From positions 1-38,891 of the IMG/VR virus record IMGVR_UViG_2576861092_000011: a stretch of DNA of 38,891 nucleotides; one strand, given 5' to 3'. The translations under genes and the position numbers were made by a program. Origin of the DNA: a virus. Lineage: Duplodnaviria; Heunggongvirae; Uroviricota; Caudoviricetes. The notes under the pieces were generated by a model. It made no database searches and was not told the DNA's origin. It was given only the letters and a program-made list of their open reading frames with translations. Of this stretch, positions 29,237 to 33,179 are shown piece after piece. Position 1 is the first letter of the stretch; the number at the start of each line of letters is the position of its first letter.

Positions 29237-29953
29237 ATGGAAAATAAAAAATCACTGACGACAGAACAGCTCGAAGACGCTAAGCGGCTTAAGGCTTTGT
29301 ATGAGTCAAAAAAGAAAGAATTGGGAATAACCCAATACTCAATCGCTGATGAACTGGGTATCACCCAAGGAGCGGTAGGGCATTATCTTAATGGCAGAAA
29401 CGCGCTAAATGTTGAGGTCGCATCTGGTTTTGCACGTTTGTTGCAAGTCTCAATTGCTGATTTTAGCCAGTCAATTGCTGCCAAGGTTGCAGAACAGGCA
29501 GAAAGCCTTAAGAGCGATGCCAACGTAAGGTATGCAGGGGAATACAGAGCAGGAAAGAGGTATCCGGTGTTAAGCAGTATCCAGGCTGGCTCGTGGTGTG
29601 AAGCATGCGAACCATACACCATTAAAGACATAGATGTTTGGCTTGAGTCTGACGCGCATATTCAAGGTAATGCGTTTTGGCTTAAAGTGGAAGGTGATTC
29701 AATGACGGCACCGGTTGGGTTAAGCATTCCAGAGGGAACATTCGTTCTTTTCGATACCGGAAGGGAGGCGATCAACGGCAGCTTGGTCATAGCAAAACTT
29801 TCTGACTCTAACGAAGCAACATTCAAGAAGCTGATAATCGACGGCGGAAATAAATACCTCAAGGGACTTAATCCTGCATGGCCTCTCGTGCCAATCAATG
29901 GAAACTGCAAGATTATAGGCGTTGCAATTGAGACAAAACTCAGACTGGTTTGA
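29237..29953 (+). CDS. cI: CI repressor (HTH plus S24 LexA-like autopeptidase domain)
   Basis: 238 aa; N-terminus similar to lambda CI (..LTTEQLEDAKRLKALYESKKKELGITQ..); C-terminal ..AFWLKVEGDSMTAP.. and ..FKKLI.. match the S24 Ser/Lys peptidase signature. Confidence 0.9.
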   Translation: MENKKSLTTEQLEDAKRLKALYESKKKELGITQYSIADELGITQGAVGHYLNGRNALNVEVASGFARLLQVSIADFSQSIAAKVAEQAESLKSDANVRYAGEYRAGKRYPVLSSIQAGSWCEACEPYTIKDIDVWLESDAHIQGNAFWLKVEGDSMTAPVGLSIPEGTFVLFDTGREAINGSLVIAKLSDSNEATFKKLIIDGGNKYLKGLNPAWPLVPINGNCKIIGVAIETKLRLV

Positions 29954-29971: not shown

Positions 29972-30340
29972 ATGGTTGGAACCGCTATAGCAAGCTTTTT
30001 GGGGATGTTGGCAATCTCAACAATTTACGGCTTAGCGCATGCTTTTATTGCGAAATCTCTATCAGAAAAAATAAGCCAGGCTTGGGCGCATAGATCAGCT
30101 CGTTTCATGATTCTAGTTGTCATAGCAATACAAGGGATATCTGCATTTATCCTCTATGGATCAAGCTTATACCTATTGTATCAAGGCGCGACATTTACGC
30201 CTTACACCAGTGATTACGGAACTCTATACGATGGTAGTGAAGACATCACTGTGGCTTGGATCGTCTTTGGTTTATCTATGGCCGTGTCTGTTGTAGCAGA
30301 CATCATTAAGGTAATTCTCGTCTTAACCTTCGCTGACTAA
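29972..30340 (+). CDS. Small integral membrane protein co-transcribed with cI (rex/sie position); candidate superinfection-exclusion or abortive-infection factor
   Basis: 122 aa with 3-4 predicted hydrophobic helices; strong RBS AGGGGG; 18 bp after cI stop on the same strand. Confidence 0.6.
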   Translation: MVGTAIASFLGMLAISTIYGLAHAFIAKSLSEKISQAWAHRSARFMILVVIAIQGISAFILYGSSLYLLYQGATFTPYTSDYGTLYDGSEDITVAWIVFGLSMAVSVVADIIKVILVLTFAD

Positions 30341-30427
30341 CCTATAATCCCGGCAGCAATAGCTATCGGGATCCACTTCACATATCCCGCATAAAAAGCA
30401 CTGAACAAGCAGACACCGAAAAAAATA

Positions 30428-30512
30428 AATATCCTTTGTATTCATTTGCTTATCATTATTTCACCAAAAATAAATACCTTGGGTATTTACACAATAAAAT
30501 ACCTACAGTATT
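30428..30512. promoter_or_regulatory. OL operator region (PL): AATAC-N5-GTATT sites
   Basis: AATACcttggGTATT (30473..30487), AATACctacaGTATT (30498..30512), weaker AATATccttttGTATT (30428..30442); same half-sites as OR. Confidence 0.55.
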
Positions 30513-30560
30513 CTTTAGCCATCAGCAGGACGCTGGAAGCCAAACGGAACAGATTGGCAG

Positions 30561-30600
30561 GCTCTTTAACATTGATGGGATTGTCCCGCCGAAATGCGGG
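30561..30600 (+). promoter_or_regulatory. nutL: boxA (GCTCTTTAACA) and boxB hairpin (CCCGCCGAAATGCGGG)
   Basis: Upstream of N on the plus strand; same boxA/boxB as nutR. Confidence 0.65.
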
Positions 30601-30708
30601 AACCAAAGAGTAGTTGGCTTTGGGGTGACGTGAAGTGCAGCTGCACGACGGCAACCGGAAGATAAGCACCCGGCGCGTCACCGCCAAAGTCAATCATCGG
30701 AGGTCAAC

Positions 30709-31008
30709 ATGACAGTAGTCATTACATATCTGGCTGACGATAACGCCAGAAATCGCCGCAGAGCACGCAGACAGGCTCAACGTGAACAGGCAATGCAAGA
30801 ACAGCGACTGGCGCGAAAAATTGCGCTAAAGCTCTCTGGTTGCGTCAGAGCAGATAAAGCAGCATCACTCGGAAGCCTTCGCTGCAAGAAGGCAGAAGAA
30901 GTCGAGAGTAAACAGAATCGTATTTACTACCGCAAGCCACGCAGTGAAATGGGTGTGACTTGTGTTGGTCGCCAGAAAATGAAATTAGGCAGCAAACCAC
31001 TTATTTGA
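30709..31008 (+). CDS. N: N-like transcription antiterminator
   Basis: 99 aa; N-terminal arginine-rich motif (DDNARNRRRARRQAQREQA); C-terminus ..NRIYYRKPRSEMGVTCVGRQKMKLGSKPLI resembles lambda N C-terminus. Confidence 0.8.
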   Translation: MTVVITYLADDNARNRRRARRQAQREQAMQEQRLARKIALKLSGCVRADKAASLGSLRCKKAEEVESKQNRIYYRKPRSEMGVTCVGRQKMKLGSKPLI

Positions 31009-31016
31009 GGTGAGAT

Positions 31017-31175
31017 ATGAACATGAATGTATCTTTAACAAAATCATTGCTTGCCAGTCGTGGATTAAAGATGAAACCAACAAAAAGTTATAAAAACGGC
31101 AGTCGATGCTACTCAGTTTCAGGATGGAGCGGAGAGTACACAATCAAAGGTATTTTGTGGCAGTTAGGATTTTGA
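31017..31175 (+). CDS. Small hypothetical early protein (52 aa)
   Basis: Below ORF-track cutoff; ATG preceded by GAGGTGA RBS; first of three tandem small ORFs after N. Confidence 0.4.
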   Translation: MNMNVSLTKSLLASRGLKMKPTKSYKNGSRCYSVSGWSGEYTIKGILWQLGF

Positions 31176-31208
31176 TGATTCTTTTGGCAGCAAGACACAG
31201 AGGTGAAT

Positions 31209-31343
31209 ATGAACGCAGTTGAGTTTACAAAATGGATGGCAGAGCAAGATATCACAGGAGCCGACGAAAAGGCTGTGTACTACATGGCTATGCTATGGAT
31301 TCACAAAGCAAAAGAGGCTGCAAATGCTCTTGGAGGTGAGTGA
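31209..31343 (+). CDS. Small hypothetical early protein (44 aa)
   Basis: ATG preceded by identical GAGGTGA RBS; stop overlaps start of next ORF by 1 nt. Confidence 0.4.
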   Translation: MNAVEFTKWMAEQDITGADEKAVYYMAMLWIHKAKEAANALGGE

Positions 31344-31531
31344 TGAAAGTAAAAATAACTGCTTCTAATACCAGTTTTGTAAGTGTTGGTGATATTACAG
31401 AAGTAATAACAAATCATGATGGAACACAAGTTATGTGGTCTGATTTCTGTAAAAGATATGAGCGAGTTAGTTGGTGTAAACTCGTATGGGGCGTCGAATA
31501 CGAAGAATTACCTGAAATGCATGACGAATAA
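31343..31531 (+). CDS. Small hypothetical early protein (62 aa)
   Basis: ATG 31343 with GGAGGTGA RBS; translationally coupled to upstream ORF. Confidence 0.5.
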   Translation: MKVKITASNTSFVSVGDITEVITNHDGTQVMWSDFCKRYERVSWCKLVWGVEYEELPEMHDE

Positions 31532-31626
31532 GCACTGTGTATTCATTCCAACGAGTGAATACACGGAGCAATGTCGCTCGTAACTAAACAGGAGCCGACT
31601 TGTTCTGATTATTGGAAATCTTCTTT

Positions 31627-31652
31627 GCCCTCCAGTGTGAGGGCTTTTTTAT
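31627..31652 (+). terminator. Rho-independent terminator within the PL operon
   Basis: GCCCTCcagtgtgAGGGC followed by TTTTTTAT. Confidence 0.6.
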
Positions 31653-31716
31653 ATGCATACCAATAACGCTTCACTCGAGGCGTTTTCGTTATGCAATCAA
31701 ACAGAAGGAGCATCCT

Positions 31717-31887
31717 ATGCAACAGTTCGCTATTGCAGGGGCGGCATCGGTTCGCCCTTTCAACCCGATTTTATCGGTACAGCATTCACGAAAAAATATT
31801 TTAACCGGAGCAGACTTTAAACAACCAAGAATGAAAAGTTTGCTCGAAAAGCTTTGGGATATTTTGAAACAACAAGGCCGTCCATGA
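31717..31887 (+). CDS. cIII: CIII-like protein (putative FtsH inhibitor), 56 aa
   Basis: MQQFAIAG.. vs lambda CIII MQYAIAGW..; central amphipathic helix KSLLEKLWDILKQ resembles the CIII core; AGGAG RBS. The longer 91-aa track ORF would run through the terminator and is rejected. Confidence 0.55.
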   Translation: MQQFAIAGAASVRPFNPILSVQHSRKNILTGADFKQPRMKSLLEKLWDILKQQGRP

Positions 31888-31968
31888 GTTTTACAGATAA
31901 CTGGTCAGACGAAGAATTCATTCGTCAGATGAACAAAATGCTCAATCAGCACAAAGAACAGGAGAAAG

Positions 31969-32280
31969 ATGATGATTCTGACTCTGAATGATAAGCGTGA
32001 AATATCGCAAATAATCGCAAGTTTTACTGATGAAGATTACGAACGAATCAACAGTGAAGTTGATCGCCTCTGCAAACGTTGCGACCCAATAAGCGAAATG
32101 CTTCGCTCATATAAACCAGATGAACACACTAAGGACGCTATCGACTGGCTGGAAGATGATGACTGTAACTATCAGGAAAAAGCCGCTGAATGGTTCTGGG
32201 ATGCAATAACCGAAAGAGTTAAGGCTGAATATGCCTTCGCAATATTCAAACGCAGACACATTTTTGGAGAAGCAGCATGA
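31969..32280 (+). CDS. Hypothetical acidic protein (103 aa) immediately upstream of recT; positional analogue of anti-RecBCD genes
   Basis: AGGAG RBS; ATGA overlap with recT start. Function inferred from position only. Confidence 0.5.
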   Translation: MMILTLNDKREISQIIASFTDEDYERINSEVDRLCKRCDPISEMLRSYKPDEHTKDAIDWLEDDDCNYQEKAAEWFWDAITERVKAEYAFAIFKRRHIFGEAA

Positions 32281-33179
32281 GCAATATCGTTGAATTCGTT
32301 AAACAGCAGGAGCAGTTATTCTGCGGAGCATTGACTGAACAGACGGTGACATGGGCTAAGGAAAGCCAGTTTGCAATTCAGTATTTCCAGAAAAACGATT
32401 ACCTGGCTAAAACGGCACTGGCAAATCCAACCAGCGCACAGAACGCCATCATCAATGTTGCGGCGATCGGCATCACCTTAAATCCTGCCAGCAAACTGGC
32501 TTATCTGGTTCCGCGCGACGGCATGGTGTGCCTTGATATCAGCTATATGGGATTGCTACATATTGCAATGGAGTCTGGTGTTATCTCATGGGGTCAGGCA
32601 AAACTTGTTCATGCTAACGATACCTATGAGTCAAACGGGCTTGATAAAGCACCAACCCATAAATACAACGCCTTCGGTGATCGTGGTGATATCGTTGGCG
32701 TTTACTGCACAGTTAAGACGCCAGCAGGTGATTATCTAACGGAAGAGATGAGTCTGGCTGAAATTGAGGCTGTAAGGAAAACAAGCAAGGCAGCATTCAG
32801 CGATAAAGGACCATGGGTAAATCACTGGAATGAGATGGCGCGAAAGACGGTCGTAAAGCGTGCAAGCAAGTATTGGCCTAAGGCATCACGTCTTGATAGT
32901 GCTATTCACGTACTAAACGAAGAAGAAGGTGTATGGACTGAACCAGTTATGCCGCACAAATCAGAGGAAGATATCCGCGAAGATGAACGGAAACTCCAGC
33001 AGGAAATAACGGATAAAGCACAACTTCTTTGTGATGAAATGGCTCAGGCAGAAAACATGGATGATTTGAAGCGATATTTTGCAGAAGCATATCGCCTGAC
33101 ATCTGGAATGAAATTGCAGCAGAACGTACAAGCCATTTACATAGAATGCAAAGCGAAACTGGAGGTTGCCAGTGAGTAA
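32277..33179 (+). CDS. recT: RecT-family single-strand annealing recombinase
   Basis: 300 aa; ..KGPWVNHWNEMARKTVVKRASKYWP.. matches the conserved RecT motif (NGPWVTHWEEMAKKTAIRRLFKYLP in Rac RecT). Confidence 0.85.
   Translation: MSNIVEFVKQQEQLFCGALTEQTVTWAKESQFAIQYFQKNDYLAKTALANPTSAQNAIINVAAIGITLNPASKLAYLVPRDGMVCLDISYMGLLHIAMESGVISWGQAKLVHANDTYESNGLDKAPTHKYNAFGDRGDIVGVYCTVKTPAGDYLTEEMSLAEIEAVRKTSKAAFSDKGPWVNHWNEMARKTVVKRASKYWPKASRLDSAIHVLNEEEGVWTEPVMPHKSEEDIREDERKLQQEITDKAQLLCDEMAQAENMDDLKRYFAEAYRLTSGMKLQQNVQAIYIECKAKLEVASE

Follow-up and report, generated by a model that had tools for sequence, protein, structure and literature searches.

The window analysed here, the whole 38,891-nt stretch of IMG/VR record IMGVR_UViG_2576861092_000011, carries on its + strand between 29 and 34 kb the leftward early (pL) operon of a lambdoid prophage of the P22/lambda type. 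Our subject is three small open reading frames (ORFs) that follow the gene for the N-like antiterminator of this operon, and that a preliminary description had listed as tandem micro-ORFs of 52, 44 and 62 codons, each preceded by the same GAGGTGA ribosome-binding site (RBS), the last two overlapping by one nucleotide. Direct reading of the sequence bore out this layout. ORF1 (52 aa; 31017-31175, +) has its Shine–Dalgarno sequence (SD) GAGGTGA at 31007-31013, overlapping the N stop codon (TGA, 31006-31008), and its ATG at 31017. ORF2 (44 aa; 31209-31343, +) has GAGGTGA at 31200-31206 and the stop TGA at 31341-31343, and ORF3 (62 aa; 31343-31531, +) has the SD GGAGGTGA at 31332-31339 and its ATG at 31343-31345. 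The motif, as GAGGTGA or GGAGGTGA, is thus spaced 2-3 nt from each ATG, and the ORF2/ORF3 overlap is the single A shared in ATGA. The preceding N-like gene (99 aa; 30709-31008, +) matches phrog_271 ('anti-termination protein N-like', E 1e-36) and, weakly, Pfam N_peptide; in RefSeq, and in phages that include CUS-3, its homologue bears the name 'antitermination protein N'. The three ORFs occupy the variable accessory stretch of the operon from N to cIII, which ends at a cIII-like gene (56 aa; 31717-31887, +; phrog_550 'CIII', E 1e-22), and their G+C content of about 0.40, compared with 0.52 in N, is typical of accessory genes.

GAGGTGA is a perfect complement, over 7-8 nt, of the 16S rRNA 3' end. 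Its total count in the window is unremarkable, at 5 copies against 3.9 expected from shuffled sequences; 333 nt of one strand contain three of the five copies, each 2-3 nt 5' of an ORF start, and a rough Poisson estimate of our own puts the chance of such clustering across the window at about 1e-4. Identical RBSs could be a sign of duplicated or related genes, an idea that we rejected: the proteins of ORF1, ORF2 and ORF3 are unrelated to one another, and the motif is part of junctions that are common to many unrelated cassettes. Comparison with related loci shows that the motif is repeated because it belongs to these conserved junctions, which lie at the borders of gene slots. The first junction, J1 (GGCAGCAAACCACTTATTTGAGGTGAGATATG; 30988-31019, +), runs from the last codons of N through the stop and the SD to the ATG. 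It extends over about 32 nt with one variable base after GAGGTGA, and in about 44 loci the gene that comes first after it is one of seven, namely ORF1, a hypothetical gene of 62, 83, 107, 140/149 and 156 aa, or a 28-codon ORF ahead of ral; a variant with 30/32 identical positions stands directly 5' of ORF2 in L075. The second, J2 (TTTGGCAGCAAGACACAGAGGTGAATATG; 31183-31211, +), is an intergenic linker that forms with J1 an imperfect direct repeat (D4) around ORF1. It precedes ORF2 or several subtypes of a 91-99-aa protein of the XkdD/Y8K6 family (Y8K6 below), and is found 3' of unrelated genes. The third, J3 (GCTCTTGGAGGTGAGTGATG; 31323-31345, +), holds the last ORF2 codons (..NALGGE), GGAGGTGA and the ATGA stop/start overlap, and in the form GCTCTTGG(A/G)G(A/G)T(A/G)AGT(A/G)ATG it also ends unrelated Y8K6-family genes.

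Unrelated genes are swapped at J1, J2 and J3, which indicates that the N-cIII interval is divided into three cassette slots that assort independently. The occupant of slot A is ORF1, ral or any of at least five further genes; in slot B it is ORF2 or a protein of the Y8K6 family, and in slot C ORF3, DUF551 or others. In 62 of the 62 lambdoid loci scored, ORF2 or a Y8K6 gene lies 5' of ORF3 with the same 1-nt overlap. Between them, these two genes also precede DUF551, a 65-aa gene and a 92-aa gene, and an identical ORF3 protein occurs with ORF2 and with Y8K6. Because the same junctions flank many unrelated genes, we conclude that they serve as RBSs; most likely they also act as homology patches for cassette exchange by recombination.

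The preliminary description had further assigned the ORFs to the slot in which lambdoid phages carry host-manipulating genes such as kil or ral. This held for ral, which in L003, L011, L014 and L016 occupies the slot of ORF1, with N on one side and the slot B gene on the other (J1 itself is seen in L003, L014 and L016); the junction ATG in front of ral opens the 28-codon ORF first. It did not hold for kil, which in relatives lies further downstream than the slots of ORF1-3 and overlaps the 3' end of cIII. A host-manipulating role is suggested by position and not by resemblance to Ral, Kil or characterized families: no Pfam family, Ral (PF11058) and Kil (PF06301) included, matched ORF1-3 at E <= 0.1 in a Pfam copy without PF27050, while neighbouring genes in relatives do match the Ral and Kil models. 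As a separate observation, the junction ATG after N opens only the 28-codon ORF (MEEEFE..) in nine loci (L003, L014, L016, L024, L028, L029, L035, L052 and L064), and this ORF lies 5' of ral in the three whose annotation was checked (L003, L014 and L016); it is a leader or else a micro-ORF that has gone unannotated.

Purifying selection acts on all three frames, which are real coding genes. Conservation of the frames in related prophages, named beforehand as a point to check, was clear throughout, with low ratios of nonsynonymous to synonymous change (dN/dS; pN/pS for polymorphism). A close homologue of ORF1, with 85% protein identity, lies directly 3' of a different 80-aa N gene in two other prophages. 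Compared with L007 (L006 and L007 being nearly one allele), ORF1 has 27 substitutions, distributed 7/2/18 by codon position, and a dN/dS of 0.12; the other two frames of the alignment are interrupted by stops and yield ratios above 2.6. At 83% DNA identity and behind the different N, this homologue retains an intact frame. The DNA homology runs from the SD/ATG of ORF1 to the ATG of the next gene, and what follows the close homologue is Y8K6 and DUF551, not ORF2 and ORF3. For ORF2, substitutions by codon position are 3/1/20 against L075, a Cronobacter prophage (dN/dS 0.03), and 2/0/12 against L076 (0.07), with values above 1 in the other two frames; closer copies varied too little to inform the ratio. 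ORF3 is represented by 26 distinct DNA variants over 66 loci, all 26 of them intact, with a pooled pN/pS of 0.17. DNA of ORF2 or ORF3 is present in 115 of 5426 complete E. coli genomes, 27 of which have both. Frameshifted copies that read into the +1 frame were also seen in other assemblies for ORF3 (P0014 and P0022) and ORF2 (P0038 and P0039), one such ORF3 variant being 79 aa long and ending in ..NTKNYLKCMTNKHCVFIPTSEYTEQCRS.

ORF1 is a new and very rare small protein family that annotation pipelines have overlooked. Its DNA was found in 3 of the 5426 complete E. coli genomes, with a PGAP annotation absent in all three, and searches with hidden Markov models (HMMs) gave no PHROG, Pfam or NCBIfam family match. 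An exhaustive HMMER search of 1.8 billion representative proteins recovered remote homologues in P0042 (53 aa), P0044 (54 aa) and the N-terminal domain of the 213-aa P0047, which share with ORF1 the motif NG..Y.[VI][ST]GW...YT..GI.WQLG[FL]. P0042, in L078, is encoded by its own gene, which lies in opposite orientation between the tail-tube gene and the tail-chaperone/tape-measure genes, and is flanked by a promoter-like site (10/12 match) and a terminator hairpin; it is a textbook moron, a stand-alone gene. The ORF1 protein is very basic (8 K/R, 1 E) and has no histidine, and an AlphaFold2 (AF2) model with a mean confidence (pLDDT) of 86.9 predicts an alpha-beta-beta-alpha arrangement resembling the double-stranded RNA-binding domain (dsRBD). 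This charge and predicted fold make it a candidate nucleic-acid or protein binder, although the dsrm profile matched no member of the family at E <= 10. Several apparent similarities were set aside. The match to PDB entry 21nr, 'TLP-IPT' (E 9e-9), is the sum of four identical repeats of 10 bits each with an individual E of 7.3; a likeness to MutY residues 146-167 covers 22 residues at E 0.01-0.03 and was treated as chance; and HMMER matches to long repeat proteins (P0041, P0043, P0045, P0048 and P0049), each in 3-24 short stretches, were treated as repeat or compositional artefacts, P0049, the one of these that was inspected, being an ankyrin-like repeat protein.

ORF2 and ORF3 belong to families that are already catalogued. 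ORF2 is a full-length match to phrog_24660 (E 2.7e-34; residues 1-44 align with positions 1-44 of the 44-position profile), is a hypothetical protein in RefSeq (WP_256025684.1, from PGAP) and reads by eye like a helical hairpin. ORF3 matches phrog_10407 (E 6.2e-46; residues 1-62 of 62) and the C-terminal domain of phrog_16117, is likewise hypothetical in RefSeq (WP_021560261.1, from PGAP), and is 61% identical to the C-terminal domain of a protein of 144 aa that T4-like Krischvirus phages encode in their early-gene region. It is not a relative of DUF551, the other occupant of slot C that we compared (hhalign probability 0.4%). An AF2 model built on a 10-sequence alignment (pLDDT 89.6) shows five strands and a short helix in a small beta-barrel with a long beta1-beta2 loop. 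Of solved structures, Gp54 from Escherichia phage Bas11 (PDB 9axb) comes closest, without a profile-level sequence match, and matches to the model in a viral structure library were all uncharacterized proteins. A predicted SH3-like barrel of the Gp54 type would make ORF3 a candidate protein-binding module. Gp54, a small beta-barrel, is a non-essential 66-aa protein that directly activates the defence protein CapRelSJ46, and its authors suggest that it may inhibit another defence system (PMC11578894). A one-genome-per-species contig scan found no relatives of ORF3. A 58-aa homologue (~67-70% identity) occurs in L017-L019, L072 and L073, within long same-strand arrays of small uncharacterized genes on contigs of 24 kb to > 1 Mb; two of these, L072 (135 kb) and L073 (259 kb), are viral contigs from IMG/VR and are probably large lytic phages. 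The presence of the domain in both settings implies that it crosses temperate and virulent phage lineages.

The order and signals of the surrounding operon are those of a lambdoid phage. The closest matches of N and its flanks are in P22-like phages such as CUS-3, and the N region has 93-99% identity with phages that include CUS-3, 21 and mEp213. Upstream lies a cI-like repressor gene (29237-29953), 3' of which a consensus scan placed a putative pL-like promoter, TTTACA-17-TATTCT (30486-30514, +; 9/12 matches), within operator-like inverted repeats; its placement between the cI-like gene and N is the same as in lambdoid phages. Next comes what we take to be a nutL-like site (30560-30601, +), assigned by comparison with the nut-site anatomy of lambda, with a boxA-like GGCTCTTTAACA at 30560-30571 and a boxB-like hairpin, TCCCGC-CGAAAT-GCGGGA, at 30584-30601. 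Between the repressor gene and pL we also noted a 122-aa predicted membrane protein (29972-30340, +; phrog_6534), in the position of lysogen-expressed exclusion genes of the rexB/sieB type and with no PADLOC match. Beyond the variable stretch, a 35-aa ORF (31884-31991, +) overlaps the cIII stop as ATGA where relatives have kil; it matches phrog_17766 and, over positions 1-20 of that profile, phrog_2123, but not Kil. RecT (32277-33179) is named after the RecT-annotated gene that relatives have at this position.

Between the N stop and 31627 the consensus scan found no terminator-like site on the + strand, the first after N being at 31627-31652 (+), where GCCCTC-loop-GAGGGC is followed by TTTTTT (fold z -3.0). 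Most relatives have a GC-rich hairpin (GGCCGCATAGTCGGCC then TTTATTTTT) that scores as an intrinsic terminator, and J2 supplies its T-rich tail and the flank downstream. This tL1-like terminator (GGCCGCATAGTCGGCC plus T-run) separates the first gene after N from ORF2 or Y8K6; it is found at 1880-1905 of L004 and at the corresponding places in most of the related loci. At 31150-31200 of the window, and in all other ORF1 carriers, the hairpin is absent. With no terminator from N to ORF3, ORF1-3 are probably immediate-early genes that would be expressed without N antitermination, while slots B and C of the relatives with the hairpin would need it; loss of the terminator in ORF1 carriers is therefore predicted to move ORF2 and ORF3 from the delayed-early to the immediate-early class. 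A 12-bp perfect hairpin, GTGTATTCATTC-CAAC-GAGTGAATACAC (31537-31564, +; -15.7 kcal/mol, z -6.5), lies directly 3' of the ORF3 stop. It is not an intrinsic terminator, because no U-run follows it, and may serve in RNA processing or stability upstream of cIII. The hairpin lies in a stretch of 37 nt shared at 100% identity with 933W, HK97, H-19B and many Stx phages, and this segment after ORF3 was the only match when the DNA of the three ORFs was compared with sequenced phages. An Rfam scan of 30300-32300 gave no match at E <= 1. An exact 12-nt direct repeat, ACAGGAGCCGAC, is present in ORF2 (31254-31265) and in non-coding DNA after ORF3 (31588-31599); we estimate that ~0.02 such repeats would be expected by chance per 800 nt.

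Taken together, we think it probable that ORF1-3 are three unrelated protein-coding accessory genes of the pL operon, expressed early and assorting independently at junctions that carry their RBSs. Transcripts from pL would span N and all three genes even before N acts, and the strong extended SD at each start would drive their translation. The start of ORF1 is 9 nt from the N stop codon, which falls within its SD, and translation of ORF3 may be coupled to termination of ORF2 through the ATGA overlap. By analogy with Ral from the same slot, and judging from position and fold, the products may be dispensable early proteins that act on host or defence components.

A number of points weigh against this interpretation, or at least narrow it. 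Transcription and translation of ORF1-3 are read from sequence, and Rho-dependent termination may occur between N and ORF3. The divergence evidence for ORF1 is essentially one independent comparison plus three remote homologues. The homologues of ORF1-3 belong to no characterized family, with no match in Pfam, NCBIfam, PADLOC or PDB sequences, and a literature search by accession and family names returned no papers on these proteins. The frameshifted copies P0014, P0022, P0038 and P0039 indicate that the genes are dispensable and occasionally decay. Conservation of J1 could reflect a conserved 3' end of N and not a selected linker; more generally, the junctions contain an SD and a start codon, and J2 also the tail of a tL1-like terminator, and functional constraint alone could explain their conservation. 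Finally, ORF1 lacks a KKxAK-type RNA-binding motif at the start of helix 2 (by reading of its sequence), which together with the lack of a dsrm match and of histidine argues against a canonical dsRBD or a HicA-type nuclease.

Two alternative explanations concern ORF1. It may not be a gene at all, the stretch from N to ORF2 being a non-coding spacer equivalent to tL1 that is open by chance; PGAP leaves it unannotated in all three complete E. coli carriers, no PHROG or Pfam family contains it, and in lambda a terminator region follows N. We regard this as very unlikely given a dN/dS of 0.12 with 18 of 27 changes at third codon positions, a frame kept intact behind a different N at 83% DNA identity, and a motif retained in remote homologues of which one is an autonomous moron and another the N-terminal domain of a 213-aa protein; moreover, the AF2 model is confident and the stretch has no terminator-like structure. 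Alternatively, ORF1 may encode a HicA-like mRNA interferase toxin of dsRBD fold or a Kil-like division inhibitor, because HicA toxins share the dsRBD fold that is predicted for ORF1, the C-terminal GILWQLGF of ORF1 is similar to ..ILKQLGLS of HicA, and small Kil-type toxins occur in pL operons. HicA catalysis, however, uses a conserved His, which ORF1 does not have and which is nowhere invariant in the family alignment (A6). An hhalign comparison with E. coli HicA aligned 11 columns with a probability of 0.8%, neither HicA_toxin nor Lambda_Kil of Pfam was matched, and no antitoxin gene is adjacent, so that a toxin of either kind seems highly improbable.

Similar reasoning applies to the downstream pair. 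ORF2 shares its slot and the ..ALG(G/D)(E/K)-stop junction with Y8K6, as would a decayed and non-functional 3' remnant of such a gene, but the homology is confined to the last 5 residues and ~25 nt of junction: hhalign of ORF2 against the conserved LIAAAPDLLEALQ core of XkdD/Y8K6 (PF27050, phrog_1273) gave a probability of 1.1% with 5 C-terminal columns aligned. Strong purifying selection (dN/dS 0.03-0.07), a full-length PHROG family of its own and the tandem occurrence of ORF2 and a complete Y8K6 gene in L076 leave little room for decay, and we give this origin hardly any credence. Small coupled gene pairs are typical of toxin-antitoxin modules, and a 1-nt-overlapping gene precedes ORF3 in 62 of 62 scored loci; ORF2 and ORF3 might therefore form an obligate two-protein unit, a toxin-antitoxin pair or heterodimer, or ORF3 might need a coupled upstream partner. 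Such a unit is unlikely, since the partner can be one of two unrelated proteins, ORF2 or a Y8K6 protein of 93-99 aa (hhalign 1% between them), and the identical ORF3 protein with either of them shows no partner co-variation. In addition, ORF2 precedes DUF551 or the 92-aa gene in loci without ORF3, the ORF3 domain stands alone, uncoupled or fused, in large lytic phages, and no toxin or antitoxin match was obtained in PADLOC or Pfam. Independently assorting accessory genes thus remain our preferred explanation.

ORF2 and ORF3 were already known as hypothetical families, and small early accessory genes in a mosaic hotspot are an ordinary kind of feature. What is new is modest: the unannotated ORF1 family with its predicted dsRBD-like fold, the Gp54-like fold predicted for ORF3, and the explanation of the repeated RBS by junctions. 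The finding is incremental and testable, and does not overturn current understanding. Nevertheless, small early phage proteins are a rich source of host-process inhibitors and anti-defence factors and are systematically under-annotated, and ORF1 is a concrete case, as a selected 52-codon gene overlooked by the reference pipeline in every complete genome that carries it. The locus also provides a clean natural example of cassette shuffling at junctions that hold RBSs, with ral or at least six other genes in the slot adjacent to N, a location that marks ORF1-3 as candidates for anti-restriction and anti-defence screens. A bolder and rather doubtful extension is that ORF1 represents a family of minimal (~52 aa), highly basic, dsRBD-like proteins, carried in the ral slot or as morons, that act on structured RNA or an RNA-handling host factor, that ORF3 falls in a Gp54(Bas11)-like class of early proteins that inhibit or trigger bacterial immunity, and that the SD-containing junctions make the N-cIII interval a dedicated exchange locus for counter-defence genes. 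If this were true, what ORF1 acts on might include, for example, RNase III-dependent control of N and cIII expression or RNA-based defence.

Among the closest known systems are Ral and the other small, non-essential N-cIII genes of lambda, 21, P22 and CUS-3, which share with ORF1-3 the operon, strand and slot as well as a similar size (52-66 aa), a strong SD and low G+C content. Like morons, ORF1-3 are small, dispensable, AT-rich and patchily distributed; unlike them, they are embedded in the pL operon without promoter-like or terminator-like sites of their own, both of which are found only at the distant ORF1 homologue in L078. The dsRBD fold, including the C-terminal domain of RNase III, is canonically alpha-beta-beta-beta-alpha and ~65-70 aa long; ORF1 is shorter, at 52 aa, and is modelled as alpha-beta-beta-alpha. 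ORF3 and Gp54 are both non-essential phage proteins of ~62-66 aa with a long beta1-beta2 loop, which in ORF3 is predicted, but they are only 12% identical and the ORF3 model has a short helix in place of the sixth strand of Gp54. Finally, the boundary-sequence model of phage mosaicism is established in the literature, and the three-slot layout fits this version of modular phage evolution (PMC3233612). As in that model, short conserved gene borders separate unrelated, interchangeable genes; here, in contrast, each border also holds an SD and a start codon, and J2 is in addition the tail of a tL1-like terminator.

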